DNA of 64,000 nt from a virus (IMGVR_UViG_3300042516_002489:506-64505); one strand, 5' to 3'. Positions 22,317-60,536 are shown, counted from the first letter of the stretch. Notes: a model not told the origin generated them from the letters alone. Numbers and translations: made by a program.

Positions 22317-22553
22317 TTATTTGCTCCATTCTCTTACATATTGAAATTCGGAATATGGCAATTCGATTGTGAATGTGTTGCCATTCTTAGTTGCATTAGC
22401 ACGGCGTGAGATTCCGTACTTCTCGACAATAACAGAAGCAATTTCTGTTTCATCGTTTAGTGAAATGATTTCTACAATTTTGTGATTGTAGAATTTAGAA
22501 GGTGGCTGAAAGAATTTATCTTTAGCGATTTCATTAGCAAGCGTTAGGTTCAT
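22317..22553 (-). CDS. Hypothetical protein
   Basis: 78 aa in a leftward operon of small coupled ORFs. Confidence 0.6.
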   Translation of the reverse strand: MNLTLANEIAKDKFFQPPSKFYNHKIVEIISLNDETEIASVIVEKYGISRRANATKNGNTFTIELPYSEFQYVREWSK

Positions 22554-22785
22554 TTAGACACCTTCCATTCTGACCACATATCTAAGCGGTCTCCGTCAAA
22601 TTCTAACCAAAATCTTTCGATATTGTTTTCACACACTTCGCAGAAAGTGTATTCGGTATCTGCTACCTCTGAGATAGCACGGACATGAGGGGTATGCTCT
22701 TTGCATACTGTGTTATTTAGTGAAGTCATTTTTGGACTTCCTTTCTTTTAGGGGCTTACTTCTTTTTCAACCTTCTATATATAGA

Positions 22786-22807
22786 AGTATAACAGAGGGG
22801 TACGACA
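22786..22807 (-). promoter_or_regulatory. Leftward promoter, PafBC/RecA-NDp-type
   Basis: Minus strand reads TGTCGT-N10-TATACT. Confidence 0.55.
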
Positions 22808-22846
22808 TTTACTGACCAGTAATGCCACAAATCGGACATTTTGAAA

Positions 22847-23013
22847 TGTGATGTAGGTCATGTGGATAACTCACGCTCAATTCTGGGTGTGATGTGCGTC
22901 ATGTGGATAACTTTGCGCCCCGGCGCACTCGGGCGTGTCTGATCTTATGTGGTACGAATCACATGCGACACGCCGTGTTTAGATTTGACTTTTTGATATT
23001 TTTGTGCTATACT
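22847..23013. promoter_or_regulatory. Divergent control region with CRP-like boxes, 2 DnaA boxes, CCGG/GGCGTGTC motifs and a sigmaA promoter
   Basis: TGTGA-N6-TCATG at 22847 and 22888, TGTGGATAA at 22861 and 22902, TGTGG-N6-TCACA at 22948, TTGACT(22985)-N17-TATACT(23008). Confidence 0.7.
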
Positions 23014-23222
23014 TCTCGTATAGAAAAAAATAAAATAGTGTAATAAATCAGGTCAATGAGCCTAGCAAGTAAACCTCTACTAGAGGGTGAGCCTAGCAAA
23101 TAAGTGACCTATATCACAAGTCCCACGCTCCACATAGTGAGACTACCAGCCAGTATACTGTACAGTACGAGATTTTTCTGTTACACTTACATAGTAAGAA
23201 AATAAAAAAGAAAGGGGTTCTA

Positions 23223-23462
23223 ATGAACTCACTAAATGAATATAACGAAAGTATCCGAAAGGATATCGCCCTAGAGTTTGGTCTAGAGGCAGGTGGATAT
23301 GCTCCACGCCCTCGCTATGAATTACCTATCCGTATTGCTCAACGCATAAACGATAAGTATCCTGCAACTTGGGAAAAAGGTGCGCTACGCCCTACCCCTC
23401 ACCCAATGGCAATAAGAATTGCTAAACGATATGTTTCTCTAATGAAAGTAGGTACTAACTAA
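23223..23462 (+). CDS. Hypothetical early protein
   Basis: 79 aa, RBS GAAAGGGG. Confidence 0.65.
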   Translation: MNSLNEYNESIRKDIALEFGLEAGGYAPRPRYELPIRIAQRINDKYPATWEKGALRPTPHPMAIRIAKRYVSLMKVGTN

Positions 23463-23638
23463 TGGTACAAGTAAAACTAACCTCGTTCAATGGTAATGTA
23501 AAGCGTATGGAATTCGCTACTACATACCTTGCTAAAAAATACATAACTGCGCTACCTAATGCGCTACCTAAAGCGATAACGCTACAAGTAGAGTGCGACG
23601 CTCTAACACTATCAGGACACATAAGGGGGAATAAATAA
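23462..23638 (+). CDS. Small hypothetical protein (paralog of 21982)
   Basis: Manual translation MVQVKLTSFNGN...LQVECDALTLSGHIRGNK; TAATG-coupled; below the ORF-track cutoff. Confidence 0.65.
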   Translation: MVQVKLTSFNGNVKRMEFATTYLAKKYITALPNALPKAITLQVECDALTLSGHIRGNK

Positions 23639-24425
23639 TGAGTATATGGACTCGATTTCCTACTGTAAACAATTATCCGCAAGGCATGATGAATTTATGC
23701 CCATGCGGTCAGGTTGTGCTAGCCCCTGCGCTATATCATGAGGGGCAACCTTATTGGGAAAATCCTAATAAGTGCAAAGAACTTTTTGAAGGAGTAAAAT
23801 AATGACTAAGTATAATGTACTAATCTCATATGTCGTAGAGGCAGAAGATGAGATGAGAGCCGTATTTGCTCTCAACAAATCACTAATGCCACTTAGCGAG
23901 AATGAAATTTCTAAGTTTGACGCATTCCTAGTAGAGGAGGCTCAATAATGATAAGCCTAGAACTTCAAGATGTACTTGCTACATGCCGTCAAATTCGTGG
24001 CAACGATAGAGACTCAGGCACACACTATCTGCTCGGATACCTATGGGCGAATACCCCTGATAAAGAAAAAGTTAGAATTGCAAAATTATTTAATAATGAT
24101 TTATTAGAACAGGAAAAAAATAAATGAATAATTTTTATCAAACTTTTTTTGTAAGTGGTAACGCACTCTTTTGGTTTTCTTTTATAACTTTCTTTTCAGG
24201 AATTTATTTGCATTTGAAAGAATGATCAAAAGTTAGCCCGGCGCACTCGGGCGTGTCGTAATCAGTTTACGTGTGATGTAATTCACTCCCCGTTTACGGC
24301 GTGTCGATTTGACTTTTTGGGATTTGTGTGTTAGTATAGTTATATAAACAATTGAATAATGCTCTAAACAATGTGACCAACCTCACATTCAAAATGTACC
24401 AAATGTCCGAATTTGGATTTGATTT

Positions 24426-24447
24426 TGTCGGTGGGAAATGCTAAAAT
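24426..24447 (+). promoter_or_regulatory. PafBC/RecA-NDp-type promoter (representative of 11)
   Basis: TGTCGG-TGGGAAATGC-TAAAAT upstream of the 24482 gene. Confidence 0.7.
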
Positions 24448-24481
24448 AGTAATATAAAGAAAAAGAAAGTGAGACAAACTT

Positions 24482-24694
24482 ATGTCTGCAAATGTATACA
24501 ATGTCCAAGCCCTACTAGTGGGAAAAGAATATATCTCTAAAACCTTGCGTGGAGAAATCGTAAGTGCAAGACCACACCCTAAGCCAATTTGGTATGACGG
24601 TTGCGATACCTATCTTGTAGAGGTTGCACCTAATAGCGGTTGGGGTGCATGGCGCAACACTTACCGCACCGTTGCAGTAAAGGTCGGTGAGTAA
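24482..24694 (+). CDS. Hypothetical early protein
   Basis: 70 aa, A-rich leader with GAAAG. Confidence 0.65.
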   Translation: MSANVYNVQALLVGKEYISKTLRGEIVSARPHPKPIWYDGCDTYLVEVAPNSGWGAWRNTYRTVAVKVGE

Positions 24695-25005
24695 ATGATG
24701 AACATAATTGATAAAACAGAATTCTATGAGATATCAGATGAACAACACTTTTGTTGCGATGAAAGTCAATTCAAATACTATTGCGAGGAACACCTAGAAT
24801 TTATGGGTTGCTACTTTTGCCAATTTGATTATTCTAAGAATTGCGAGGAACAACACTAATGGGAGAAATTGCGGGAATGTGGCTATGCAATAATTGCGAA
24901 ACAATTGCCTATGTGTCGGTGGAATCCGATACAATATTAGTAACACAATGCCAATGTGTAATGCTATCTAGAACAACAAACAACAACTAACAAAGGACAG
25001 ATAAA

Positions 25006-25212
25006 ATGGTAAAAATCGAACACACACTAAAATTCGTAACTGAGGTTGATGAAACTCACCCAGTAGGAATTCGCTTGCTCTCACTTTCTGATGAGATGCA
25101 AATCTTAATGCTTGAGTCAATGCTAAAAGAATTGCTTGCACCACGCATTCAGCCTGCACTAGATGAAATCAATGAAAACGGCACTTATGCAATTCTAAAG
25201 GTGGCAGAATAA
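25006..25212 (+). CDS. Hypothetical early protein
   Basis: 68 aa, RBS AAGGA. Confidence 0.65.
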   Translation: MVKIEHTLKFVTEVDETHPVGIRLLSLSDEMQILMLESMLKELLAPRIQPALDEINENGTYAILKVAE

Positions 25213-25392
25213 ATGATGACTCGTAAAGACTATGTAGCAGTTGCTGAAATTCTTTCATCGTATAAAGATTTAATCGGTGATGAATTTACTTTTGAGGATT
25301 TGGTAGAGGATTTTTCTGGAATGTTTGAAGCAGATAATCCAAATTTCAAACATGAAATATTTAGAGAAGCGTGTTTAAAAAATAATTTCTAA
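25213..25392 (+). CDS. Small phage protein (MTRKDY...ADNPNF type)
   Basis: Manual translation, 59 aa, immediately after the 25006 gene. Confidence 0.65.
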   Translation: MMTRKDYVAVAEILSSYKDLIGDEFTFEDLVEDFSGMFEADNPNFKHEIFREACLKNNF

Positions 25393-25401
25393 ATAAAAAA
25401 A

Positions 25402-25428
25402 ATCCTGAGCAAGATCTAAAACTGCTCA
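25402..25428 (+). ncRNA. Pseudoknot motif copy (family of 7)
   Basis: ATC-CTGAGCAA-GAT-CTAAAAC-TGCTCA. Confidence 0.6.
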
Positions 25429-25959
25429 AAGTAAGCCCGGCGTGTCGTCCACAGGTTGTGAATAACCTTACGTACGATGTGATTTTTGTCACAGAGTTTA
25501 CGTACCACTATTTGAGATTCGCAGGCTTTCGATTAGATTTTTGTCGGTGGAGCATGATAGGATATTTATATCAACTAAAGAAAGAAGGTCTCCCATGAAC
25601 CTAGATGAATTCAAGTCTCACGTTCAAGCCCAACGTGAAGCAAGCAAGGCAGAAGCCTTGTCGGTACTATCTGCTAAGATTATTGTAAAGAAAGAAGGCA
25701 ACTAATGGATACTTGTATTGCTTGTAATGAAAACGCTGTAAGTGTTACCGAACTATATTGCTACCCTTGCTATCTTGACCGAGAGTTAGAAGCGATGATA
25801 GAATCAGACTATATCAACCAACTATTTTTGACGAAAGAGGCTAACTAATATGGATTTCTATGACGACTACTATGAAACAGATATGCTACGCCCAGACGCT
25901 AAGTCTTGCTATTGCAAACTTCATTCAATTTGTACTAACTGCACGGAAGGATATAACTA

Positions 25960-26175
25960 ATGGAATACTCATACTCAATTACCGCTACCTATGATAACGA
26001 GGTTGCACCTTACTTCGTTGGTCGCTACGACAATGCTATCTCTGCCGTTACAGAGTGGAACAAGATTGTAGATTGGGGATTTGCAGATGAATATGCAACC
26101 TACAATTTCTCAGAGCCTAGTGGCAAGATGCACACTAAGATATTTTATCGTAGTGGAAAGGTTGGGGGTAAGTAA
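25960..26175 (+). CDS. Hypothetical early protein
   Basis: 71 aa, RBS AAGGA. Confidence 0.65.
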   Translation: MEYSYSITATYDNEVAPYFVGRYDNAISAVTEWNKIVDWGFADEYATYNFSEPSGKMHTKIFYRSGKVGGK

Positions 26176-26313
26176 TGAGCGACCTAACCTATTGTGAAAT
26201 TTGCTATCGTAACTTACAAGATGAAGAGTTTAATTACTTTTTTGAATATCCAGTCTGCTTAGAATGTGCAGATGAACAAGAACTAGCCCTACTACTACAA
26301 GGAGTAAAATAAT

Positions 26314-26598
26314 ATGGGAAGCATAACAGCGTTAGGACTACAAGACACCGTACTAGATTTAGAGACTCAGATTCTCTACCACCTCAAGGGTAATCACTAT
26401 CCACCAGTACCCGCAGAAATGGTACAACCTTGCATAGATGCTATTGACGCATACTATGACGAGGACTATGACCGCATGATTGATATGCCTATGGTAGGGG
26501 ACTTTCAGATTCTATACCGTGGAGAAACTCAAGCACCTGCAAGGGCTATCGTAGACCAGCACCACTTATCATTCTGGCTACCTGATTGGGAGGACTAA
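26314..26598 (+). CDS. Hypothetical early protein
   Basis: HLKGNHYPPVP...C..AI and IVDQHHL motifs; RBS AAGGAG. Confidence 0.7.
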   Translation: MGSITALGLQDTVLDLETQILYHLKGNHYPPVPAEMVQPCIDAIDAYYDEDYDRMIDMPMVGDFQILYRGETQAPARAIVDQHHLSFWLPDWED

Positions 26599-26809
26599 TG
26601 TATTCTCTATGGGTTGGCGGCAGCGAGTTAAACTCTAACTATCTTACTAGACGAGATGCAGAGTATTGGGCGCAAGAGATGATTGAAATGGGATATGACG
26701 ATGTAATTGTAGAGGGTCCACTATGATTGATTTAACTATCCCCCACTCAAAATATTGCGATTGCCAGGAGTGCATTGATATGGAAAAAGAGATATATGGA
26801 GATGAGTAA

Positions 26810-27049
26810 ATGACTGCTACAATGGAAACTATGAAATTTGTATACGCAGATCTGCTAACACCATCCCAACTGATGGAAGGCGACCTAATTAATATTGATG
26901 ATGATATCGTAGAGGTGTTGTCCGTTGTAGATGATGCAACAGGGGATAACTATACTATTTTACATCGCAATGATTTTGGTGAAGAAGAAGAAACCTTTTG
27001 CACCTTTGAGGACATGTTCAAACTCTACGTATTTATAGAAGAGGATTAG
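26810..27049 (+). CDS. Acidic small beta-barrel protein
   Basis: L.EGDLI.IDDDIVEVLSV pattern (KOW/SH3-like). Confidence 0.6.
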   Translation: MTATMETMKFVYADLLTPSQLMEGDLINIDDDIVEVLSVVDDATGDNYTILHRNDFGEEEETFCTFEDMFKLYVFIEED

Positions 27050-27124
27050 CGAGGCCGGGGCGTGTGAGATTGATCACAGCCTTACGATTTGACATTTTTA
27101 GTCTGATAGTGCTAGAATTGATTT

Positions 27125-27277
27125 ATGAGCACACAGAAAAGCCCCGAGGAATTACGCAGACTTATGGAACTTCGCCGTTCTAATGCTGCTTCTGCCGTGC
27201 CTTCTAAAAAAGTTTATTCTCGCAAGGGCAAGAAAAGTCAGTCCCTTCTGCTAGAATTAAAAAAAGAAAGTGAGTAA
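27125..27277 (+). CDS. Small basic leaderless protein
   Basis: Manual translation MSTQKSPEELRRLMELRRSNAASAVPSKKVYSRKGK...; ATG 6 nt after TTGACA-N18-TAGAAT. Confidence 0.55.
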   Translation: MSTQKSPEELRRLMELRRSNAASAVPSKKVYSRKGKKSQSLLLELKKESE

Positions 27278-27281
27278 ACCC

Positions 27282-28004
27282 ATGACCCAACTAAAACGCT
27301 CTAAAGATAGAAAGGTGGCTAACCTTGTCACAAAAAACGGAAAGCAAGCCGCAATTGCAAATACATTCGGACTACCTGCAGGAAAAAACTATTCATGTCC
27401 TGGCGCTACGACTGTCTGCGAAACTGTTTGCTACGCAGGCAAATTGGAAAAGATATTCCCAACCGTAAAGGTAAACCTTCTACATAATTGGGAATTGCTA
27501 CGCAATGCAAACTTTGATACAATGCAGACTTTGCTATCAGACATGATAGATGAGTTTATTGTTGATTGCGAAAAGAAAAATGCACCTAAGTTATTTCGTA
27601 TTCACTGGGATGGCGATTTCTTCAATGATACTTATACTAACGCATGGAAATTCGTAATTGAAAAAAACCCTGATATTCAATTTTGGGTATACACACGAGT
27701 AAAGTCTGCAGCCCTTATCCTAAAAGATATTGATAATCTCTCACTATACTATTCAACTGATAGCGAAAATAAGGCTATTGGTATTGGTCTCAAGACTGAA
27801 CATGGTGTTCGCCTTGCATACCTTGCGAAGAACTTTGCAATTGGTCAGGCAGACATGAAGGAACTAACTTCAAAGCCTGGCGCTAAGTGTCCTGAAAACC
27901 TAAAAGCCATTCCACTAATTAGCAATGCAGGCTCTGCATGCGTGTCTTGTTCACTTTGCGTATTCAATAAGGCAGATATTGTATTCTCTGCAACTAAGAA
28001 ATAA
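27282..28004 (+). CDS. Gp88-like (radical-SAM-related, Cys-containing) phage protein
   Basis: FGLPAG...SCPGAT..C..VCYA, RIHWDGDFF, WVYTR and C-terminal CP...C..C.LC motifs. Confidence 0.75.
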   Translation: MTQLKRSKDRKVANLVTKNGKQAAIANTFGLPAGKNYSCPGATTVCETVCYAGKLEKIFPTVKVNLLHNWELLRNANFDTMQTLLSDMIDEFIVDCEKKNAPKLFRIHWDGDFFNDTYTNAWKFVIEKNPDIQFWVYTRVKSAALILKDIDNLSLYYSTDSENKAIGIGLKTEHGVRLAYLAKNFAIGQADMKELTSKPGAKCPENLKAIPLISNAGSACVSCSLCVFNKADIVFSATKK

Positions 28005-28229
28005 TATTTCATGAATACGTGGATGTGGATCTTACTATGGTTACTGATTCTGTTTATGTATCAGTGACTTAGTAGGCCCGGCGCAAAAAAGTCGATTTGT
28101 CAAGTTACGACACGCCTTTAAGATGTGGGGTTTATCACACCCAGAACGCCCTCTAGGATTTGATATTTATTATATTTTTTGCTAAAATTATACTATAAGC
28201 AAAACCACCACGATAGAAAGGCAATAAAA

Positions 28230-28400
28230 ATGACACTAAGCGGATACACTTACCAAATCGGTGATTTATTCACAACAAGCAAGACAGGCGTTACTGGGCG
28301 CATCACAGATTTTAGTCCAATAAATGCTAAACTAACTAGAGTTTCATTACGCTTGGCAAACGGCGCACACCGCTTTGCTATGGTAAAGACTTCTAAGTAA
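28230..28400 (+). CDS. Small SH3-like protein (tandem paralog A)
   Basis: YQIGDLFTTSKTGVTGRIT; RBS GAAAGG. Confidence 0.65.
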   Translation: MTLSGYTYQIGDLFTTSKTGVTGRITDFSPINAKLTRVSLRLANGAHRFAMVKTSK

Positions 28401-28493
28401 TCTCAAAATATGAGATTATTTCCCAATGGATTTGTATTTCCGAGATTTTTCGGATATACTAGAAATATAACCAACAACAGAAAAGGAAAAAAA

Positions 28494-28655
28494 ATGACAG
28501 TAGCACAAGCACTATACAAGGTCGGCGACACTTACACATCACAGAAGTCAAAGGTAACTGGCACAATTACAGAAATCAAGCCAAACGCTAACGGCACAGT
28601 TCGTGTGAAGTTAGATGTTGCAGGTGCAACACGCTGGACAACTTGGAAGGCGTAA
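28494..28655 (+). CDS. Small SH3-like protein (tandem paralog B)
   Basis: YKVGDTYTSQKSKVTGTIT; RBS AAAGGA. Confidence 0.65.
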   Translation: MTVAQALYKVGDTYTSQKSKVTGTITEIKPNANGTVRVKLDVAGATRWTTWKA

Positions 28656-28664
28656 GCCTTTCAT

Positions 28665-28732
28665 AGTCGCCAATGTACAGCGACTCTAAATAAGTGGCAG
28701 GAACGAACCTGAGCAAGTTCCAAAAAGGCTCA
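28665..28732 (+). ncRNA. Structured RNA: hairpin/pseudoknot plus pseudoknot-family copy
   Basis: AGTCGC..GCGACT stem, then GAAC-CTGAGCAA-GTTC-CAAAAAG-GCTCA. Confidence 0.55.
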
Positions 28733-28797
28733 TCACAAAAGTCAGACCCACCCCCTATAATAGAAATATAACCCACCAAAGAAAAGGAAAAAACACA

Positions 28798-29223
28798 ATG
28801 GCAACAAGAGGAAAAGCAATCTCAGTAAAAATCGCAACACCAAAGGTAATCAAGGCACTAGAAGCATCACTCGCTAAAATTGAAGCAGACTACGCATCAC
28901 AAGAAGCAAGCGAAGCAAAGTATCAGAAGGCTATGGAAAAGTATAGAAAAGAACTTGGTGCATTTGCGGTAAAGCATATCGCTAAGGCAGAAAATCTACG
29001 CTCATCATATCGCTCGTGGAATAATCAACTAAACATTGACTTTGACCTAACAGTTACTAAGGACTCGCTTCCAACTGAACCTGAGCGTGATTTCGTATCA
29101 TTGAACGAATACGAATATCGTAATCAGAAAGAGGAGATTGCAAACGCAATTCGTATCCTTAAAATGACCGACGAGGAAGTTGTAAATACTTCCACATACA
29201 ATGCGGTGGCTCGCTATCTCTAA
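28798..29223 (+). CDS. Hypothetical coiled-coil early protein
   Basis: 141 aa, strong RBS, PafBC-type promoter at 28740. Confidence 0.75.
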   Translation: MATRGKAISVKIATPKVIKALEASLAKIEADYASQEASEAKYQKAMEKYRKELGAFAVKHIAKAENLRSSYRSWNNQLNIDFDLTVTKDSLPTEPERDFVSLNEYEYRNQKEEIANAIRILKMTDEEVVNTSTYNAVARYL

Positions 29224-29230
29224 TAAAATG

Positions 29231-29483
29231 TAGATATGTCCTCTGGCAACACGATATATCTGTCTGCAACCTGAGCAAGTTGTAAAACTGCTTCACAAGT
29301 TTCGCCAGGCTGATTAGGGCGATTATAGAAATACTATAGAGCAAGGTTACTGCAGACCTAAAGAAGCAGACCACCTGAGTAAGTGCCAAAACTGCTCATC
29401 AAATTTCACAAGAACCATACGCATGGATATTAGTTCCATATACATGGTAGTGAGAGTTCCTGATCATGAACTAAAACTGATCA
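29231..29483 (+). ncRNA. Tandem pseudoknot/hairpin RNA array
   Basis: Three family copies (29266, 29372, 29455), two variant pseudoknots (29302, 29344), two hairpins; no credible ORF. Confidence 0.6.
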
Positions 29484-29608
29484 CATTTGCCCCGGCCCAG
29501 GTGACCAAGATCACATCTCATTATGTAGGATAGGACCTTTACGTGTTGCATTTGTCAGCCCCCTCTGCTAGAATTATATTATTACCAAAGAGAAAGAAGG
29601 AAGCCCCT

Positions 29609-30106
29609 ATGGGATTAGATATGTATCTCAGCGCTAAGAAGCATTTAGAAAAAATCAACTGGAAAGCCTTGCAAGATAATAATGAATTATCTTATTCATC
29701 TCCTGAAGCAGTCTATCCAAAATTCAATGACCTAATGGAATTGACACAACTATCAGATGTTGCAACAGATATCTACGGAGCAAGTGTAGAGGTAACCTGT
29801 GCCTACTGGCGCAAGGCTAATCAGATACACGCTTGGTTTGTAAGAGAAATCCAAGGTGGCGAGGATAACTGTGGTGACTACTATGTATCACAAGATAAAC
29901 TAATAGAGTTGCTAGCACTATGTAAGCATGCCCTAGAAACTAAAGACCCTAGCCTATTTCCACCGCAGGCAGGATTTTTCTTTGGTGGTACAGACATTGA
30001 TGAGTGGTATTGGAATGACCTAAAGAATACTATTAGTCAACTAGAGCGTATCTTTGCTCTACCTGAAATTGATAAGTTATCATTCTATTACTCATCATCT
30101 TGGTAA
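29609..30106 (+). CDS. Phage protein (MGLDMYL...YWRKANQIH.WF type)
   Basis: Recognisable motifs including GFFFG...DEWY and FYYSSSW; RBS AAGGAAG. Confidence 0.75.
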   Translation: MGLDMYLSAKKHLEKINWKALQDNNELSYSSPEAVYPKFNDLMELTQLSDVATDIYGASVEVTCAYWRKANQIHAWFVREIQGGEDNCGDYYVSQDKLIELLALCKHALETKDPSLFPPQAGFFFGGTDIDEWYWNDLKNTISQLERIFALPEIDKLSFYYSSSW

Positions 30107-30171
30107 TTGACATTTGTCAGTGGCCACTAGTACAATTGAATACATATACCAACTAACAGAAAGAGGCCCCC

Positions 30172-30603
30172 ATGGACCAAACAGTAATAAATGCAACAAA
30201 TGAATTCCTTCAGACACAGATTAGTGCACTGCAGGAAGCAATTGAAAAGAAAGATTTAATGATTGTTTCACTACAAGACCGTGCATCCCAAAATTCACAA
30301 CGTGAATATGCAACTGCAGCATCAATGAACAAATTGCGTGATGACATGCAAGAGTGGACATTGGGTCAACTTGGCAATGGCCAACTTACAGAATCACAAG
30401 CAGAAGAAATTGCAGAGATTTGCGGGTTTGACCTTACCAAGGAAGTTGAAGTTGAAGTTAGCGTAACTTATAACCTGACCGTAAACGTTCCTTATGATGA
30501 GGACGTTGAATCAATTGTAAATGATATTGATTTTGAATCAGTGTCATATAATTCTGACAACATCACTTGGCTTACCGCTTCAGTTGACAGGGTTGATTTT
30601 TAG
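30172..30603 (+). CDS. Hypothetical acidic protein
   Basis: 143 aa, RBS GAAAGAGG. Confidence 0.7.
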   Translation: MDQTVINATNEFLQTQISALQEAIEKKDLMIVSLQDRASQNSQREYATAASMNKLRDDMQEWTLGQLGNGQLTESQAEEIAEICGFDLTKEVEVEVSVTYNLTVNVPYDEDVESIVNDIDFESVSYNSDNITWLTASVDRVDF

Positions 30604-30680
30604 TAGGGGGCTACTAAAAGACATGTCGAATGTCTTTAAACTAGGCAAGGGACCTGAGCATTGTCCATGTAAACGGCTCA
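30601..30680 (+). ncRNA. Hairpin plus two pseudoknots at operon 3' end
   Basis: TAGTAG-GGGG-CTACTA; AAAGAC..GTCTTT-AAAC-TAGGCA; GGAC-CTGAGCATT-GTCC-ATGTAAAC-GGCTCA. Confidence 0.55.
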
Positions 30681-30843
30681 CTTTTTATTTCTAAAACCCG
30701 GCGTGTCGTGATCAAGATCACATTGTGAATTACGACACATTACAAAAATGTCCGATTTACCCCATATCTAACTAGCCTGATTTGCATATGTCGGTGGCTC
30801 ATGTTATGATTGTACTAACAAACAAACAGAAAAGAGAAAACTC

Positions 30844-31866
30844 ATGGCACATGACCTAGAAACACAAAACGGAAAAACATCTTTTGCATCTTTCCGTGAA
30901 CCTGCATGGCATGGATTGGGTACCGTATTCACAGAGGAAAAAACAACCGTTGAAATGCTGGAAGCAGCAAATCTAAATGGTTGGAATGTTCGTCTTGAGG
31001 ATTTGGAAACCCCATCACATCTAACAAGCGACAAGTCATACCAATATGTCTTGCGTACAAATCCTACCGATAACACCCAGACCGATATTCTCGGCGTAGT
31101 TGGTGAGCGTTATCATGTATTGCAGAATGAGGATTTATTTTCATTCGGTGATAATATCCTAGACGGCGGTGGTCGTTGGGAAACCGCTGGCTCAATCAAG
31201 GGTGGTCGTGTTGTGTTCGGTGCATTAGCACTAGAGCGTGAAACAATCCTAGACCCTAACGGCGTAAGTGATAAGGTAAAAACTTATTTGCTTATCAACA
31301 CATCACACGATGGCTCAATCGCTATTCAAGCAAGCATAACACCCGTTCGTGTTGTGTGCGCTAATACTCTCAACCTTGCTCTTGGTGGCGTAGGTCGTAA
31401 GAAAAATAAAGGCATCAAGCAATCATTCAAGATTCGCCACACACAAACTGCAAATGGTAAAGTGCAGATTGCTCGTGAGACTCTTGGTCTTGCTAATGCT
31501 TACATGGATGAATTTGATATTATGGCTAAGGCTATGATTGAAAAAGAAGTCAATGCTCTTGATTTCAACAAAATCATTCTCGCCGCATATCCTAAGCCAG
31601 AAAAAGATGCTAAGGGTTCAATCAAGAAGTGGGAAAATAAAGTTGATGTTATCAACGATATTTACACTGGTGAATTCAATGGCATGATTGCTGGCAATGC
31701 GTGGGGTGCTTTCAATGCACTTACTGAGCGCCTTGATTGGTACCGTTCTGCTCGTGGTGGTTCTAACGAATCTATCCTTGCAAGCGCAAGCGGATTTGAC
31801 CCTGCTATCAACGCAGAAAAAAATCGCTTACTAAAAGTTGTGCAAGGCGTAATGTCTCTCGCATAA
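30844..31866 (+). CDS. DUF932 / TIGR03299 phage-plasmid protein
   Basis: REPAWHGLG, LGVVGERY..LQN, ETAGSI.GG, NTSHDGS, TPVRVVCANTL, IRHT motifs. Confidence 0.9.
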   Translation: MAHDLETQNGKTSFASFREPAWHGLGTVFTEEKTTVEMLEAANLNGWNVRLEDLETPSHLTSDKSYQYVLRTNPTDNTQTDILGVVGERYHVLQNEDLFSFGDNILDGGGRWETAGSIKGGRVVFGALALERETILDPNGVSDKVKTYLLINTSHDGSIAIQASITPVRVVCANTLNLALGGVGRKKNKGIKQSFKIRHTQTANGKVQIARETLGLANAYMDEFDIMAKAMIEKEVNALDFNKIILAAYPKPEKDAKGSIKKWENKVDVINDIYTGEFNGMIAGNAWGAFNALTERLDWYRSARGGSNESILASASGFDPAINAEKNRLLKVVQGVMSLA

Positions 31867-31871
31867 TAAAA

Positions 31872-31899
31872 TATCCTGAGCAAGATAAAAAACTGCTCA
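31872..31899 (+). ncRNA. Pseudoknot motif copy directly 5' of tRNA-Asp
   Basis: TATC-CTGAGCAA-GATA-AAAAAC-TGCTCA. Confidence 0.6.
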
Positions 31900-31905
31900 C
31901 CATTT

Positions 31906-31982
31906 GGTTCCGTAGTTTAGTTGGTTAGAACGCTACCCTGTCACGGTAGAGGTCGTGGGTTCAAGTCCCATCGGAGCCGCCA
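31906..31982 (+). tRNA. tRNA-Asp(GTC)
   Basis: Cloverleaf GGTTCCG/CGGAGCC, anticodon arm CTACC-CTGTCAC-GGTAG, TTCAA T-loop, encoded CCA. Confidence 0.95.
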
Positions 31983-32138
31983 AAGTAATCTCAAGATCTT
32001 GCGGGCCGGTCTCTATAACATTTTGTTACAAACCTTATTACGGTAGTATGATATTTTTCCCAAATCTCTATTACGGGACTTGCTATTTTTTCCCAGTTCG
32101 GGTACAATTAATATATACCTACTAACCAAAGGACCACC

Positions 32139-32564
32139 ATGAGAGAAAGATCAAAAGGCTATATTGGCCAAATCGTTGACGGTAAGAAACTAGCCACAAT
32201 TGCAAACAACATCTATCGTCTACAGTATAGTAATGACTTTAGTGAATGTACAGTAGATAATCTTCTACTCGTTACCCTGGATGAAAAAAATGTATTTGGC
32301 GATAACAAGTACGCTTTGGTTTGTTCAGAAGGCGTTGGCTGGGAGCAGGATACTTATGGATGTTTAGAAGTACCAACTAACATTGGTCAAATGGGTCTAT
32401 GGAATGGAAGAGTGTTTATATCAGTAGACACTGTTAAAGAATGTCTATCAGATCAAATAGCAGATATCGCAGACTATATCCGTGTCTTTGGTGACCGACT
32501 AGAGCGCAACTGTGACCTATGGCAATCCAAAATGTCAGTGGCAAAGGATATGATAGTAGTATGA
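32139..32564 (+). CDS. Hypothetical protein
   Basis: 141 aa, RBS AAGGA. Confidence 0.65.
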   Translation: MRERSKGYIGQIVDGKKLATIANNIYRLQYSNDFSECTVDNLLLVTLDEKNVFGDNKYALVCSEGVGWEQDTYGCLEVPTNIGQMGLWNGRVFISVDTVKECLSDQIADIADYIRVFGDRLERNCDLWQSKMSVAKDMIVV

Positions 32565-36129: not shown

Positions 36130-37850
36130 CATAGAAAACCATCTATGTCAAACCACATTTCCTAAAAACTTATTACGATAGGGCTATTTTTTTCCCAGAT
36201 CCATAGACAAACCTTCAAACCTTATTTCCAAAAAAACATTACGAACCCTAAAAAACTTTTCCCCGTACCAAACCTTATTTCCCAAACCATCAAACCAGAT
36301 ATAAAGGTTTGGTATTGTATCTTATACTACTGACATTACGATCATTCTTATTTATCCCCCGATCTAAGGCTGTTTACTAAGCCTATCAAACATTGTAGAA
36401 CGGTTTGTAGATGGTACAATAGAATATGGGGAAAAAACAAATCATTCAATTTGAGTCAGTGCATTCAGCACATCCCAATGTAATGATTCCCGCAAAAAGT
36501 TTAGTTCCTAAATGGTTTAAAGATGAAAAACTACTAACACCACCAGAAACAACTTTTAAAAATTGTGTACCTTTTTTGGACTCTTTAATATCTGGATATC
36601 TGGTAACACTGCCTGTAGACATTCTTGTAACACAACAAGATGGTCATCCAATTATTAACTGGAGACAGTCTAATGATGGTTTGACAATGGTTGGTTTTAG
36701 ACTTAATGAATCTATAGACAGGATCCCAACCCCGCATGGGTATCATAAGGATTCTTTCTATTGGCACTTTCCAGTATCATTTAAACTACCCATAGGGTAC
36801 AGCGCTTTGTTGACGCAACCAATAAACAGGTTTGATCTTCCATTTCAATCTCTTTCTATAGTCTTGGATGGTGGATATACCCTTGTTCCAGAAGCCCGTG
36901 TCACTTTCTTTATTCGTGAGGGGTTTGAAGGTATCATTCCACAAGGTACTCCGATACTTCAGATCATACCATTTAAAAACGAAGAGTGGGTTGCTAAAGA
37001 TACACCAGGTATAGTTGCTGAAGGGCAAAAGAGTAAGGTGCTCTCAAACTCTGTATATGTAGGCTGGTATAAAAAAACATGGTGGGCTAAAAAAAATTAC
37101 AACTAACTAACAGAATAAGGACATTACGATCCCAGGGGATCTAGCGGGGGATTACGAATGATACCAAATTCCCCTAGCATAATACACACTAAATAGACAA
37201 ACCTTTTTTCCTGGTTTTCTAGAAATTATCAAACCTTTTATATATTTTTTCCTGGTTTTTCCTAGATTTTCTGGACATTTTGCTACATTTTGTAGAGGGT
37301 TTTTAGGCTATAAAGGTTTGACAAATAGGAGGTTTGGGGGTATAATGTGAGGTTTGGGAATGTGAGGTTTGACATATGAAGGTTTGTGTGATAGGAGGTT
37401 TGGCCCCTTAGACATTACGACCCCATCTGTCTAAATGCTCAATGCTCCCTTTCTCTCCACTTTCCTCCACTAAAAGAATATCTAAAAAATATCAGTAAGA
37501 TTTATCTGTGGATAAACCTGTGGATAACTATGTTATATAGCCGTTATCAAACCAGAAATATCAAACCTTTGCCTGTGGATAACTCGTAGAGTTACTCTGA
37601 TAAACTATCAAACCAGTAGTATAATCAACCTATGGACCTAGCAACATTATTCATTTATTGGATATACGGAATGATCGGATTATCAGGTTTGCTAATGCTT
37701 TGGGCTATTAAAGAGTGTATTTTCCCAGGGGATAAGTAACCATGGATATGTTGGTTTTCTGCGCTATCCCATATATCCTGGCTATCGCCTTAGCATCTTA
37801 TATCTGGTATAGGGGCTAATATCTTATACTAGGGATTACGATGCCCTATT
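36130..37850. repeat. Repeat-rich interval (CAAACC/AGGTTTG, ATTACG, DnaA boxes) interrupted by one gene
   Basis: Six AGGTTTG at 37314-37402; TGTGGATAA at 37507, 37519, 37574; GACATTACGA at 36332, 37120, 37411. Confidence 0.7.
36426..37106 (+). CDS. Hypothetical protein (same family as 15000 and 41607)
   Basis: TFKNCVPFLD...GY, LPIGYS, IPQGTPILQIIP; leaderless after TGGTACAAT. Confidence 0.7.
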   Translation: MGKKQIIQFESVHSAHPNVMIPAKSLVPKWFKDEKLLTPPETTFKNCVPFLDSLISGYLVTLPVDILVTQQDGHPIINWRQSNDGLTMVGFRLNESIDRIPTPHGYHKDSFYWHFPVSFKLPIGYSALLTQPINRFDLPFQSLSIVLDGGYTLVPEARVTFFIREGFEGIIPQGTPILQIIPFKNEEWVAKDTPGIVAEGQKSKVLSNSVYVGWYKKTWWAKKNYN

Positions 37851-41216: not shown

Positions 41217-41677
41217 TTGAAATGGAAGATGACTAAAGAAAAAGAATTTGAGGATTGGGCTAAAATGAATAATGTTGACATTACAACAGAGTTACATCTT
41301 CAATATCAAAGGTCTTTAATCATAAATGAGTTAGCAATGGCGGGTATAGCAATTGATCTTCCTGGAGATTTTTTACAATCTTTAAACTCACAGCAGTTTG
41401 CAGAGGTGATTGCTGGATTAATTAGAAGGAGAGTTAAATGAATAGTTGGATTGAAGAACTAGACGAAGACAAAAAGAAAGATTTAATGGAAATGATTATA
41501 ATGACTGTTAAAGAGATTCGTGAACAGATGGATCAGGACATTCTTTTTACTCAGCAAATATGGGAACGTAAAGGTTTTCTGAAAAGCCGTAGGACTCGTA
41601 AAGCGTTTGAAGCATGTCGCTCAATTGTTCAGGGAAAAAACGAAATATTTAAGGATAATGATGAAAAACAAGATTAA
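41217..41677 (+). other. Two short hypothetical ORFs (41217-41441, 41438-41677)
   Basis: Coupled ORFs with RBS. Confidence 0.55.
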
Positions 41678-42380
41678 GTTTACTGCTATGAATAAGTTTG
41701 ACTATGATATTCAACTAAAGCCATATCCAGCATCTACAAATATTCCAAGTTGGTGGAGAGATGAACTGCCCTACACTGTAAGTGAGTCAAACCCAACTGG
41801 GAAAAAAATAATCGTTGAAAATTCAACTTCTAATGCAACATTTAAAAAATGCACACCAATGCTTGATGCTATAACATCAGGCTACATAATTCCATTATGG
41901 ACAGATGTTCAGGTAAGAATAGTTGATGGTGAACCAGTCATTACTTGGAGAACACAAAGACAGGTATTTTTAAAACATGGAGAGGCCTCCGAAAGAGTGG
42001 TTCCTCCAACTGGATACTCAAACCATGTTTTTAAATATTTAAATACATGGATGCCAAAAACTCCAAATGGTTATTCTGTTTTGGTAACCTCACCATTTGG
42101 ACATAGAAATTTACCTCTTCAAGCAATTCCTGCTATTATAGACTCAGATAGGTCAACACTAGACATTGTTCCTCCTATGTGGCTAAAAGATGGTTTTGAG
42201 GGAATAATTGAAAAAGGAACCCCAATGATTCAAATAACTCCATTTAAAAGAGAAAACTGGGAATCGGAATGTGACTATTTAGAATATGGAGAATTTGAAA
42301 AAAATCAAGAAAAAAACTTTAACTCAACTTTAATAAACCATTACATAAAAAATGTATGGTCAAAAAAAAGTTATAAGTGA
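41658..42380 (+). CDS. Hypothetical protein (same family as 15000 and 36426)
   Basis: TFKKCTPMLDAITSGY, KTPNGYS, IEKGTPMIQITP. Confidence 0.7.
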   Translation: MMKNKIKFTAMNKFDYDIQLKPYPASTNIPSWWRDELPYTVSESNPTGKKIIVENSTSNATFKKCTPMLDAITSGYIIPLWTDVQVRIVDGEPVITWRTQRQVFLKHGEASERVVPPTGYSNHVFKYLNTWMPKTPNGYSVLVTSPFGHRNLPLQAIPAIIDSDRSTLDIVPPMWLKDGFEGIIEKGTPMIQITPFKRENWESECDYLEYGEFEKNQEKNFNSTLINHYIKNVWSKKSYK

Positions 42381-42668: not shown

Positions 42669-42742
42669 GCACCAGTAGCCAAGTTGGTTAAGGCCCCGAA
42701 CTCATAATTCGGTTATCGTAGGTTCAAGTCCTACCTGGTGTA
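42669..42742 (+). tRNA. tRNA with CAT anticodon (Met or Ile2)
   Basis: GCACCAG/CTGGTGT acceptor, CCGAA-CTCATAA-TTCGG, TTCAA T-loop. Confidence 0.9.
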
Positions 42743-42746
42743 CTAT

Positions 42747-42817
42747 GGGCCTAAAGCATTAAAGTGATGCTCAGGACTTTTAATCCTGAGAAGAAGGAGC
42801 ATTACCTTCTAGGCCTA
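42747..42817 (+). tRNA. tRNA-Lys(TTT) with atypical D and T loops
   Basis: GGGCCTA/TAGGCCT acceptor, CAGGA-CTTTTAA-TCCTG, T arm GAAGG-AGCATTA-CCTTC. Confidence 0.75.
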
Positions 42818-42818
42818 C

Positions 42819-42891
42819 GCCTCTGTAGTTCAGTGGACAGAACAATGGACTTCTAAGCCATGTGTCGCAGGTTCGATTCCTGCCAGGGGCA
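42819..42891 (+). tRNA. tRNA-Arg(TCT)
   Basis: GCCTCTG/CAGGGGC acceptor, anticodon loop CTTCTAA, TTCGA T-loop. Confidence 0.9.
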
Positions 42892-42895
42892 CAAG

Positions 42896-43459
42896 TTAGT
42901 ACTTACCACCACGACGCTTGTATTCGGCTACTACCCATGCGTTTGCCACTGCTGATGGATAAACTTGAAACTTTTTCTTTGCTGCTGAAACAACTCTTGC
43001 GTATAACTCTTTATCTTGTGGCTCACCTTTACGTGGTTTAATAATGTTTCCATAATTAGTTTTCTTTTCAAGATCAAAAATTGATGTAAGTCTTTCTGCC
43101 CCAGGGATAAATTTTCCGAAATCCATAAATATATCTGACGATTCTTTAGTTCTGTTTACGATTGCTCTTGACCATGAGAACCCAGCATCTCCGCCCCATG
43201 CATCCCACATGATACGACCATTAGATGGATTAGATGTATTGTAAAAGTCTTTACCCTTTTTATCAACTTCGTGCCGTGCAAAAAATGAATACATGCGTTT
43301 AACTGTATCGAGAGACATTGCAGAACCATTTACGATATCTGTTGCCCTTCCCCAACCTACAGGTGTTCCTGCTCCTGTTGCCTTGCCTTCTTCTTTCCAC
43401 TTTAAAGCACGACGAGCCGCTGCTTTCATACCCGAATTAGGGCTATATGTATCTGCCAT
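42896..43459 (-). CDS. Two-domain phage protein (fusion of domains found in 54139 and 54495)
   Basis: GMKAAARRAL.W...GTPVGW.RA...TVKRMYSFF.RHE...WDAWGGDAG plus YPSAVANAWVV.EYKRRGG.Y. Confidence 0.75.
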   Translation of the reverse strand: MADTYSPNSGMKAAARRALKWKEEGKATGAGTPVGWGRATDIVNGSAMSLDTVKRMYSFFARHEVDKKGKDFYNTSNPSNGRIMWDAWGGDAGFSWSRAIVNRTKESSDIFMDFGKFIPGAERLTSIFDLEKKTNYGNIIKPRKGEPQDKELYARVVSAAKKKFQVYPSAVANAWVVAEYKRRGGKY

Positions 43460-43509
43460 ACTTCTATTATACTATAGATTGTGGTACAATTATTGTAAAG
43501 GGGTGTATC

Positions 43510-44466
43510 TTGGCTAGAATTGTTTTTTTAGGTAACTTTGGTGTGGATTATAGTAGTGAAAATCATCACGCAAAATCTCTTGAATCCCTTGGGCATACCG
43601 TAGTTAAAATGCAAGAGCGTGAAGCAAGAAGTCAGCATATCCTTAGAGAATCATTGAGCAGCGATCTATTTGTCTGGGTACACACACATGGGTGGCACAC
43701 TCCTGGAAATATAGGTATGGACCAGGTTTTGCTTAAACTTAAAGAGGCAAAAGTTCCAACAATGACATATCACCTTGACTTGTGGTTTGGTATTGAGCGT
43801 CAAAAAGATTTAGATGAGGACCCATTTTATAAAACCATTGGTCACTTCTTTGCTACAGATAAATTAATGACTGATTGGTTTAATGAAAATACAGAAGTTA
43901 AAGGTCATTTCCTTCCTGCGGGAGTATATGACAAAGAGTGTTATGTTCACTCTCACTATAACCCAAAATATTTTGATTACGATGTTATTTTTGTTGGAAG
44001 CAAAGGGTATCATCCAGAGTATCCCTATCGCCCACAACTAATAAACCATTTAAGATCAGTATATGGTAAGCGCTTCCTTCACGTCGGTGGGGATGGAGAC
44101 ACAGGTACAATTCGTGGGGATGCACTAAATAAAATTTATGCTCGGAGTAAGATAGCAATTGGTGATAGTCTTAACATTGGCTTTAACTATCCTTACTATA
44201 CAAGTGATAGAATGTTTGAAAGTACTGGTCGTGGAGCATTTACTATCTACCCTCGAATCAAGGGCCTTGAATATCTTTTTACAGACAAAGAGATTGTTCT
44301 ATATGAGCATGGAAATTTAAAAGATCTAGAAGAAAAGATTAACTATTATCTAGAGCATGAAGAAGAAAGAGAAACTATTCGTATGGCTGGTCATGAAAGA
44401 ACAAAAGTAGACCATACATATATTAATAGATGGAAAAATATCTTAGAAGTGTTGGAAATTAAGTGA
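43510..44466 (+). CDS. Glycosyltransferase (GT-B, CgeB/YkvP-like)
   Basis: DVIFVGS, YARSKIAI, SDRMFES.G.G, INYYLEH..ERE.I...G motifs; TTG start. Confidence 0.85.
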   Translation: MARIVFLGNFGVDYSSENHHAKSLESLGHTVVKMQEREARSQHILRESLSSDLFVWVHTHGWHTPGNIGMDQVLLKLKEAKVPTMTYHLDLWFGIERQKDLDEDPFYKTIGHFFATDKLMTDWFNENTEVKGHFLPAGVYDKECYVHSHYNPKYFDYDVIFVGSKGYHPEYPYRPQLINHLRSVYGKRFLHVGGDGDTGTIRGDALNKIYARSKIAIGDSLNIGFNYPYYTSDRMFESTGRGAFTIYPRIKGLEYLFTDKEIVLYEHGNLKDLEEKINYYLEHEEERETIRMAGHERTKVDHTYINRWKNILEVLEIK

Positions 44467-45347
44467 AGTATTTAGTTACTGGTGGTGCTGGTTTTATTGG
44501 ATCTAACTTAGTTAATAAGTTAATTAATCTTGGCCATGATGTGATTTGTATTGATAATGAGTCTGCAGAATGTCATGATCAATTCTATTGGAATGATCAA
44601 GCACAAAATTATAAGTATGATATTTGTGATTATGATCTAATTGCTCCACTCTTTAAGGATGTTGACTGCGTATTTCACGTCGCATCTGATGCAAGAATAC
44701 AGCCAGCAATACTAAATCCTAAAAAATCTATTCATTCAAACGCAGTAGGGACAGCCAATGTTCTTGAACTTTGTAGGGTAAACAATATAGATAGGCTAAT
44801 CTATTCTAGTACATCCTCTGCTTATGGCAAGAAGGCAATACTTCCAAACATAGAAACACAGCCATCTGACCCACTAACACCATACTCTGCTGCTAAAGTT
44901 TTTGGTGAAAACCTTGCAAAAGTTTATTATAACCTTTATGGTCTTAAAACTATATCGCTCAGATACTTTAATGTTTATGGAGATAGGCAGCCATTAAAAG
45001 GACAGTATGCTCCAGTAATAGGGCTATTCTTAAAACAATATCATGAGTCAAAACCACTAACAGTAGTTGGAGATGGATCTCAACGCAGAGACTTTACACA
45101 CATATCTGATGTGGTAGAAGCAAATATACTTGCATCTGAAGTTAAAGATGGATTTGGAGAGGTATACAATATTGGGTATGGAAGTAACTATTCTATACTT
45201 GATATTGCTAATATGATTTCAAATGATATCAAGTTTATACCGTCAAGAGTTGGAGAGGTTCAAGAAACTCTTGCGTCTAACTCTAAGTTTAAAGATTTAA
45301 CTGGATGGATACCAAAGGTATCACTAATAGAATGGTTGCAAAAATGA
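44463..45347 (+). CDS. NAD-dependent nucleotide-sugar epimerase/dehydratase
   Basis: TGGAGFIGS, YSAAK (YxxxK), LRYFNVYG, GDGSQRRDF. Confidence 0.95.
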   Translation: MKYLVTGGAGFIGSNLVNKLINLGHDVICIDNESAECHDQFYWNDQAQNYKYDICDYDLIAPLFKDVDCVFHVASDARIQPAILNPKKSIHSNAVGTANVLELCRVNNIDRLIYSSTSSAYGKKAILPNIETQPSDPLTPYSAAKVFGENLAKVYYNLYGLKTISLRYFNVYGDRQPLKGQYAPVIGLFLKQYHESKPLTVVGDGSQRRDFTHISDVVEANILASEVKDGFGEVYNIGYGSNYSILDIANMISNDIKFIPSRVGEVQETLASNSKFKDLTGWIPKVSLIEWLQK

Positions 45348-46057: not shown

Positions 46058-46592
46058 AACTTTTTGGGATAACGCTGCTAAAGATCCAGATGTAAGGTAT
46101 AAGTATATTGCAGATGAGTGGGCAACTACGGAAACATTTTTGGATCTTATAAAAAATAATAATCACGAATGGAATGGTGTTTTAGAAATTGGTTGCGGAA
46201 TAGGCAGACTGCTAGTTCCTTTTGCGGATATGCACAAAGAGTGTAACTTTTATGGGATAGACATATCTGATGAAATGATAAACCTTGCACCTAAAAGAGA
46301 TAATATAAAGTATCAAGAACTTGCAGATAACCTTGATTTTGTATATTCAATGTTAGTCTTTCAGCATATTGAACATCAAGAAAAGATTAACTACACAAAA
46401 CTTGCTTATGAAAAATTAAAAGTTGATGGTATTTTATTCTTTCAGTTTGTTGTTGGGGAAGAGAACTCTCCATACTCCTATCAAACATCAAGGTTTGAAA
46501 TTGAAAAAATGCTGAGTAGTGCAGGATTTAAAAACTTAATATTTACAAATCATATGCATCCTGAATGGATGTTTGTTAGGGCTACAAAATGA
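46044..46592 (+). CDS. Class I SAM-dependent methyltransferase
   Basis: VLEIGCGIGR, GIDIS..M, VFQHI. Confidence 0.9.
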   Translation: MNHAKTFWDNAAKDPDVRYKYIADEWATTETFLDLIKNNNHEWNGVLEIGCGIGRLLVPFADMHKECNFYGIDISDEMINLAPKRDNIKYQELADNLDFVYSMLVFQHIEHQEKINYTKLAYEKLKVDGILFFQFVVGEENSPYSYQTSRFEIEKMLSSAGFKNLIFTNHMHPEWMFVRATK

Positions 46593-49835: not shown

Positions 49836-49860
49836 GTTAATCCATAATAGCATAAAAGAA

Positions 49861-49884: not shown

Positions 49885-49896
49885 TCCATAATATAA

Positions 49897-60532: not shown

Positions 60533-60536
60533 ATTG

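Follow-up and report, generated by a model that had tools for sequence, protein, structure and literature searches.

PafBC (RecA-NDp)-type promoters in the early small-gene module of a low-GC actinophage family and their possible link to a host single-stranded DNA sensor

A 64,000-nt stretch of viral DNA (IMGVR_UViG_3300042516_002489:506-64505; hereafter the window), part of a virus record of 64,505 nt that CheckV rates as ~60% complete, carries a module of small genes in which a TGTCRG box recurs exactly 10 nt upstream of a TANNNT -10 hexamer. Judged from the statistics of this motif in the window and its relatives, these sites are real promoters of the early small-gene module of the phage. 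Their layout coincides with that of the actinobacterial RecA-NDp promoters, which are read by the activator PafBC. We propose that a widespread lytic lake actinophage family has copied this host architecture onto 7 to 16 early genes per genome, such that the single-stranded DNA (ssDNA) alarm of the host would switch on takeover or counter-defense genes by sigma adaptation; we rate the chances of this proposal as about even.

A promoter class with invariant spacing

The motif TGTCRG-N10-TANNNT has nine exact matches in the window, where 1.04 are expected (standard deviation, 0.96; largest value, 4), and none of 100 shuffles reached nine. With the spacing varied from 0 to 24 over the whole 64,505-nt record, N10 gave nine matches and each other spacing gave 0 to 3. 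An earlier note on this stretch had named eight exact plus-strand sites (24426, 24914, 25542, 25659, 29553, 30115, 30789, and 32533), all of which we found; its list was incomplete in that it overlooked a ninth exact match on the minus strand (36335-36314). The one-mismatch sites that it gave are also present, namely, 27236 and 28740 (both AGTCAG) and 22807 on the minus strand (TGTCGT), the last of which is a doubtful member because a G-to-T change at position 6 is rare in the family described below (TGTCAT in 9 of 2163 contexts). The sites of this class (P class) and two of the genes that follow them are as follows:

24426-24447, plus strand: P-class promoter TGTCGG-N10-TAAAAT with -35 TTGATT (24419, 17 nt) and extended -10 TGc; 34 nt before the gene of a 70-aa protein (24482-24694)
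24914-24935, plus strand: P-class promoter TGTCGG-N10-TACAAT; inside open reading frame (ORF) 24859-24990; the next gene starts at 25006
25542-25563, plus strand: P-class promoter TGTCGG-N10-TAGGAT; 31 nt before the ATG at 25595
25659-25680, plus strand: P-class promoter TGTCGG-N10-TAAGAT; inside ORF 25595-25705; 24 nt before the ATG at 25705
27236-27257, plus strand: P-class variant AGTCAG-N10-TAGAAT, GTC kept; 24 nt before the gp88-family gene
28740-28761, plus strand: P-class variant AGTCAG-N10-TATAAT, GTC kept; 36 nt before the gene of a 141-aa protein (28798-29223)
29553-29574, plus strand: P-class promoter TGTCAG-N10-TAGAAT with -35 TTGCAT (29546); 34 nt before the ATG at 29609
30115-30136, plus strand: P-class promoter TGTCAG-N10-TACAAT with -35 TTGACA (30107, 18-nt spacer); 35 nt before gene 30172-30603
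30789-30810, plus strand: P-class promoter TGTCGG-N10-TATGAT with -35 TTGCAT (30782); 33 nt before the DUF932 gene
32533-32554, plus strand: P-class promoter TGTCAG-N10-TATGAT; inside ORF 32139-32564; the ATG at 32561 (53-aa ORF) lies 6 nt downstream
22786-22807, minus strand: doubtful variant TGTCGT-N10-TATACT with extended -10; points into the leftward gene 22550-22729
36314-36335, minus strand: exact match TGTCAG-N10-TACAAT outside the module, with only a 33-aa ORF downstream; possibly the one match predicted by chance
27282-28004, plus strand: gp88-family gene (PF17338), 52-55% identical to homologs in Mycobacterium phage L5 and Streptomyces phages
30844-31866, plus strand: DUF932 gene, more conserved than any other in the module; its promoter is P class in all four complete relatives

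The longer form TGTCRGTGG, which the earlier note saw in several copies, is read at six of the eight exact plus-strand sites. Its remarks that some copies lie inside the upstream coding sequence (24914, 25659, 27236, and 32533) and that the four listed -35-like hexamers are retained also proved accurate. The next start codon follows the -10 box by 24 to 36 nt at 8 of the 10 plus-strand sites, by 70 nt at 24914, and by 6 nt at 32533; because of the last distance, the transcript from 32533 is a candidate for leaderless translation.

To place these counts in a wider set, we used the DUF932 protein, which has 466 relatives in IMG/VR; 80 loci with 91-98% protein identity and 33-41% GC were kept (1.36 Mb in total). 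In these, N10 yields 613 matches on the gene strand and 38 on the opposite one, while the other spacings of 4 to 17 yield 4 to 206 (8 for N9 and 4 for N11). The enrichment at N10 over other spacings, which the earlier note had proposed as a check, is thus present both in the record and in its relatives. A second spacing class (N5, N7, N12, N15, or N16) was considered and rejected, since its matches mostly reuse the TGTC of an N10 site, as do 196 of the 206 N16 matches. An IMG/VR-wide scan with the pattern TTGTCRGTG-N5-TGN-TANAAT matched at least 120 stretches, giving 80 loci. Among the matches listed, 74 of these 80 have nucleotide similarity to the family (34-41% GC), the family loci hold as many as 16 N10 sites, all of one strand, within ~13 kb, and four loci that are unrelated by both blastn and tblastx (L114, L142, L165, and L176) have only 1 or 2 sites each.

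The association also emerges when no hexamer is prescribed. Across 141 modules, GTC stands at the exact offset in 586 of 2163 unique TGnTAnnnT contexts, as against 1 to 21 at neighboring offsets and 127 at one further offset, and the dominant hexamers recovered are TGTCAG (471) and TGTCGG (71). Together, the shuffles, the spacing scans of the window and the 80 loci, and this offset test rule out a chance origin of the motif. Built from 418 unique cores, the sequence logo runs A-A/T-A/T TGTCAG T S S C ... T G n TAnAAT and holds no more than 0.3 bit upstream of -4; the spacer between box and -10 is poorly conserved, while box, -10, and distance are kept. Among 928 unique family sites, the first ATG comes 25 to 39 nt after the -10 in 64% and 4 to 9 nt after it in 84 sites, the -10 is extended by TG in 60%, and TTG at the -35 position (17 or 18 nt) is missing in 75% and present in 25%.

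Five related records of 112-119 kb are rated 100% complete, and BLAST shows that a block of ~47 kb in the complete relatives is missing from the record of the window. In four complete genomes of 115-119 kb, 7, 8, 10, and 6-7 sites lie on one strand within one 7- to 10-kb module, with sporadic single matches elsewhere. The TGTCRG box is therefore peculiar to the promoters of the early small-gene module and is not a mark of phage promoters in general.

PafBC-like architecture and candidate readers

The window is part of a fragment of a ~115-kb, 35-38% GC, WhiB-encoding actinophage related to the Stanwilliamsviridae of Streptomyces (the GC of the window itself is 31-45% in 2-kb intervals). We assign it to the actinophages because its WhiB product scores above the cutoff and because its portal and gp88 proteins are closest to those of phages of Actinobacteria:

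52884-53171, minus strand: WhiB-family gene (actinophage marker), above the Pfam cutoff; outside the module

In tblastn searches of 50,697 phage records, this WhiB matched only phages of Streptomyces (128), Mycobacterium (16), Rhodococcus (9), and Gordonia (5), and the portal protein is 46-47% identical to Stanwilliamsviridae portals. A temperate lifestyle with damage-induced prophage induction was considered and set aside, since no tyrosine integrase was found in any of six records (that of the window and the five complete ones), serine integrases lying outside the search.

The P class was equated in the earlier note with the PafBC promoter motif, and the comparison bears this out: it agrees in sequence, spacing, and flanks with the in vivo PafBC motif, given as tGTCgg(N10)tA(N3)T in the available text of PMC8635444. 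According to that text, the -26 element occupies -23 to -28 and is read by the helix-turn-helix (HTH) of PafB through two guanines of a strictly conserved GTC; the 3' part of the motif is a SigA -10 without a -35, and PafBC takes its place between the DNA and sigma domain 4 (sigma adaptation) (PMC8635444). PafBC becomes active when ssDNA binds to its WYL domains (PMC11804915, in the part available). The Pup-proteasome locus, with which pafBC is tightly associated, is described in the accessible portion of a review as present in all Actinobacteria, and the RecA-NDp promoter as extending beyond mycobacteria (PMC8223512). The -26 element with its conserved GTC is found at the window sites (the eight exact plus-strand sites and the two AGTCAG variants) and in the family. 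An older consensus, that of Gamulin 2004, is reportedly tTGTCRgtg-N8-TAnnnT. In the phages, the tGTCgg/TGTCRG box places GTC within -28 to -23 and lies exactly 10 nt from a SigA-type TAnnnT, with an A-rich upstream flank, a T/S/S/C downstream flank, and a -10 that precedes the start codon by ~25 to 35 nt, like that of recA in metagenomic actinobacterial contigs.

These recA loci were obtained by scanning metagenomes for the motif with a recA N-terminal pattern downstream of it; as the motif was required, the scan speaks for its presence in such organisms and not for its frequency. It returned 57 stretches, 55 of which encode a RecA with the Walker A motif and 31 of which have an actinobacterial DUF3046 ORF just upstream. 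One contig of 44% GC displays the canonical actinobacterial order pgsA-cinA-HTH_3-DUF3046-[TGTCAG-N10-TATCTT]-recA-recX; contigs of 45% and 49% GC likewise have TGTCAG, and a group of 50-51% GC has TGTCGG at recA. In four loci of the latter group (L275, L296, L259, and L285), a ClgR-like HTH_3 gene two genes upstream of recA has its own TGTCRG-N10-TANNNT site 22 nt before the start, which fits a conserved PafBC-type regulon in freshwater actinobacteria. In 17 recA loci spanning 146 kb, 22 sites have the N10 spacing, 17 of which were selected for, versus 0 to 4 at other spacings. The flanks shared by the phage logo and 21 unique recA promoters from the DUF3046-positive contigs (a small and partly redundant sample) are A-rich at -3/-2, with T preferred and no G at +6, S at +7/+8, and C at +9.

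A phage-encoded PafBC-like protein or sigma factor was rejected as the reader: no WYL domain was found in any of the six phage records, and no HTH_PafC, HTH_11, or Sigma70_r2 in any phage record searched, whereas the control genomes were positive. MotA and AsiA (PF09114 and PF09010) also had no match in the six records, although neither family matched any control genome. A separate observation concerns a 56-aa HTH protein with a subthreshold Sigma70_r4_2 match, conserved in the complete relatives G001 (77.7 kb; L092 1435-1605), G002, G003, and G005; it is encoded outside the module, in a region that the record of the window lacks.

The rigid spacing, the nonpalindromic half-site, and the poorly conserved spacer point to a factor acting with RNA polymerase rather than to a repressor operator. 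Since the phage has no PafBC-like gene, and since the box coincides with a host promoter class in sequence, spacing, and flanks, host PafBC is the most likely reader; that it reads the phage promoters by sigma adaptation is a view we consider evenly poised. Each promoter joins a SigA-type -10 (often with TGn) to a TGTCRG -26 element exactly 10 nt upstream, the RecA-NDp architecture. The constitutively present host heterodimer, once bound to ssDNA, would insert between sigma domain 4 and the DNA and recruit RNA polymerase, and the phage would fire or boost 7 to 16 early promoters whenever ssDNA appears in the cell. The ssDNA might arise through UV damage, while the injected genome is being processed, or as phage replication begins; the earlier note's idea that incoming or replicating phage DNA acts as the trigger is pure conjecture. 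Who reads the box, what triggers it, and when it acts are inferred. In a weaker version, PafBC may only boost promoters that already work alone.

The phage sites also differ from known PafBC promoters. They lie on a lytic phage genome at 7 to 16 per module, precede small ORFan genes rather than repair genes, and prefer A over G at position 5 (90%). Beyond this, several findings weigh against PafBC as the reader; they concern promoter strength, exchange between promoter classes, the small proteins of the module, the cultured relatives, and the search for a host. PafBC promoters are described without a -35; this hexamer is absent from 75% of the 928 family sites, yet a -35-like hexamer stands at 4 of the 8 window sites and a quarter of the phage sites overall keep one. 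The DUF932 promoter has GATTTGAC/GATTTGCA together with TGTCRG in all genomes. The -10 boxes of the 21 chromosomal recA promoters are weak and none has TGn, whereas those of the phage are much stronger, near consensus (TATAAT or TACAAT), and extended in 60%; the phage promoters may therefore work without an activator. Homologous genes also exchange promoter types: that of 28494-28655 is preceded by a -35 promoter in two complete genomes and by one of the TGTCAG type in another two, and that of 30172-30603 has TGTCAG in three and a plain TTGACA promoter in one, for which reason the classes may be functionally equivalent.

Such strong, partly -35-bearing promoters would suit a different account, in which they are self-sufficient SigA promoters and TGTCRG is either an operator through which a phage or host repressor or modulator shuts the early module off or part of an inherited cassette spread by recombination. 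The hybrid promoters, which have consensus TTGACA plus TGTCAG, agree with this, as does the recurrence of promoter, ribosome-binding site, and flanks as repeat families; the rest of the genome, moreover, uses a TGGTATAAT-type extended -10 without an upstream element. A single nonpalindromic hexamer at an invariant spacing (613 at N10 against 8 and 4 at N9 and N11) would, however, be unexpected of a repressor site, and the retention of box, -10, and distance around a poorly conserved spacer argues for selection on geometry relative to RNA polymerase over mere common descent. We regard this account as distinctly unlikely.

In the module, the P class is interleaved with a second class, the E class (GATTTGAC-17-TGnTAnnnT), which has the canonical SigA -35/-10 layout that the TGTCRG sites, mostly without a TTGACA-like hexamer, do not share:

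22985-23013, plus strand: E-class promoter, -35 GATTTGACT, 17 nt, TGc TATACT; first rightward promoter of the module
24309-24337, plus strand: E-class promoter TTGACT-17-TAGTAT
27089-27118, plus strand: E-class promoter TTGACA-18-TAGAAT; before the gene of a 50-aa basic protein (27125-27277)
28160-28188, plus strand: E-class promoter TTGATA-17-TAAAAT; before gene 28230-28400

This interleaving would fit a phage-encoded early protein that reads TGTCRG and bridges to RNA polymerase in the manner of T4 MotA/AsiA, with the E class being immediate-early and producing the factor, and with the PafBC likeness reflecting convergence or mimicry. Throughout the four complete relatives, the universal gene 27125-27277 is served by an E-class promoter, never by one of the P class. 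One of the ~20 small module proteins could be a novel adaptor: 20 of them have no Pfam family, the only PHROGs matches (for 27125-27277 and 28494-28655) are weak and to groups without an assigned function, and tblastn of 27125-27277 against phages gave no match. The motif is, in addition, confined to one phage family in the pattern scan, among the matches listed. For this to hold, an unrelated factor would have to match the host class in 6 to 9 nt of sequence, in a spacing of exactly 10 nt, and in what it prefers at the flanks; the six records have no match to HTH, WYL, sigma, AsiA, or MotA domains (the last two without a positive control); and the switching between E and P classes at orthologous genes fits a strict early-to-middle cascade poorly. 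On balance, a phage-encoded adaptor is a doubtful though tenable candidate.

In the nearest cultured relatives, four Streptomyces phages of the Stanwilliamsviridae, and in L5, the motif is not enriched, its counts equaling those of a reversed-pattern control. A role as a general actinophage feature is not supported, on this ground and on that of the 1 or 2 sites in the unrelated scan loci (among the matches listed). These cultured relatives infect PafBC-bearing hosts and do not use the motif, which favors a phage-encoded adaptor over PafBC. Another host factor of low-GC actinobacteria that shares the site of PafBC, such as a different WYL activator or a WhiB-sigma complex, was also weighed. 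The phage does encode a WhiB, but so do the Stanwilliamsviridae, which lack the motif, and low-GC actinobacterial contigs carry the same element at the canonical targets of PafBC, namely, recA and clgR-like genes; we deem such a factor very improbable.

A WhiB scan of genome contigs in search of the host found only two phage-like contigs (L090 and L091), in metagenome-assembled genomes labeled Saccharibacteria and Methylococcus. The latter genome (G007) has five WhiB contigs (C4, C8, C27, C108, and C254) and no WYL, and WhiB is missing from all 12 other genomes sampled in its family, so that the contigs are likely to be misbinned and to stem from actinophages. The earlier note's suggestion of a phage regulon wired to host PafBC thus stands in part. 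The motif identity, the actinophage assignment, the absence of WYL and PafC-type HTH domains from the phage records searched, and the same element at low-GC recA speak for it, and the cultured relatives without the motif speak against it.

Other promoters, repeats, and genes of the window

A third class, with TGGTATAAT/TGATATAAT-type extended -10 boxes and neither a -35 nor a -26 element, precedes most other genes, including the structural ones. Examples outside the 22.8- to 32.6-kb region are as follows:

1291, 3352, 6968, 14285, 19321, 55463, and 63422, minus strand: third-class extended -10
35561 and 43452, plus strand: third-class extended -10

A simple sigma-70 and terminator scan of the window stayed at background level. 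The window also holds several repeats. TGTGGATAA, which we take to be the complement of the DnaA-box consensus, has five copies in two clusters (22861-22869 and 22902-22910; 37507-37515, 37519-37527, and 37574-37582) against 0.97 expected, a number reached by 1 of 100 shuffles. At the left edge of the early module, the divergent control region holds one of the clusters, and these copies may represent an origin or DnaA-binding sites. The intergenic motif AATGTCCGAWTT occurs three times (22829-22840 on the minus strand; 24402-24413 and 30747-30758 on the plus strand) against 0.88 expected, with 4 of 100 shuffles reaching three; it stands 20 to 40 nt upstream of promoters and is also carried by relatives. 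A hairpin-forming repeat, CCTGAGCAAG...AAAACTGCTCA, has five intergenic copies in the module (25403-25431, 28707-28735, 29269-29297, 29373-29401, and 31874-31902) and may serve as a terminator, in RNA processing, or as an insulator. The palindrome GTGAYCAAGATCACAT has four intergenic copies (23104-23119, 24373-24388, 29501-29516, and 30708-30723); together with the GGCGTGTCG/CCCGGCG repeats that accompany it (24250, 24298, 25439, and 30700), it looks like an operator.

Two paralogous gene pairs belong to no known family. The first (28230-28400 and 28494-28655) encodes proteins of 53-56 aa that are rich in beta-strand-like sequence, and the second (36426-37106 and 41607-42380) encodes proteins of 226 and 257 aa with common motifs such as F-K-x-C-x-P-x-L-D. 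A cluster at 43447-49889 encodes glycosyltransferases, a NAD-dependent epimerase/dehydratase, and FkbM-type and class I methyltransferases, the products of which may modify sugars on DNA or the cell surface; the ESM Atlas clusters nearest to the epimerase are mostly viral. Megablast against cultured phages found no close relative of the window, the sole match being to a Proteus phage at 31910-31969, inside the tRNA-Asp gene. This is one of six tRNA genes (Asp, Met, Lys, Arg, Gly, and Asn; at 31906-31982, 42669-42892, and 60459-60609).

Relation to known systems

Among cultured phages, the Stanwilliamsviridae (Yaboi, Muntaha, Blueeyedbeauty, and others) resemble the phage family in their portal (46-47%), WhiB (36-40% identity), gp88 homolog, and genome size of ~115-130 kb. 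The family differs from them in its 35-38% GC, its origin from environmental IMG/VR contigs, and its TGTCRG-N10-TANNNT motif, which is not enriched in the Stanwilliamsviridae.

In T4 middle promoters, a MotA box is combined with a sigma-70 -10, and MotA and AsiA appropriate the sigma factor. These promoters, which are also named in the available text of PMC8635444, are comparable as a phage class in which a host-type -10 is paired with a factor box that replaces or overrides the -35 and which is interleaved with ordinary early promoters. They differ in that no MotA or AsiA homolog was matched in our records (in searches without a positive control) and in that the TGTCRG box is centered at -26 and not at -30. 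As the TGTCRG sequence is that of a host regulon, the factor is, unlike in T4, probably host encoded. Should a phage-encoded adaptor read the box instead, it would be a new sigma-adaptor protein; if PafBC does, the phage would provide a second natural context for sigma adaptation.

Phage genes wired to the SOS (LexA) response, including those of prophage induction, are switched on by relief of repression through RecA. Lambda CI and RecA are described in this role in the part of PMC12392091 available. The likeness, if the PafBC reading is true, lies in the coupling of phage expression to a host DNA-damage or ssDNA signal. The difference is that direct activation by a LexA-independent WYL activator would apply here, in a phage without a tyrosine integrase. 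Among the titles and abstracts listed in a literature search, none concerns phage promoters under the control of PafBC or another WYL activator, and the regulon would be the first in a phage to be driven by a host WYL-domain activator. Such control would suggest how early genes are timed in abundant freshwater actinophages, perhaps in step with UV damage in surface water, and it would make the ORFans downstream, among them gp88, DUF932, and many small proteins, candidate takeover or counter-defense genes.

A functional parallel is found in the WYL regulators of antiphage systems (BrxR, CapW, and DdaA), which, as far as the available portions of their descriptions go, also tie infection or DNA damage to transcription through a WYL ssDNA sensor. 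There, in several bacteria, the host switches on defense; here, the phage would exploit the sensor. If PafBC indeed reads these promoters, a sensor for repair and antiphage defense would have been turned into an ignition switch for the phage, the opposite use of the host alarm.

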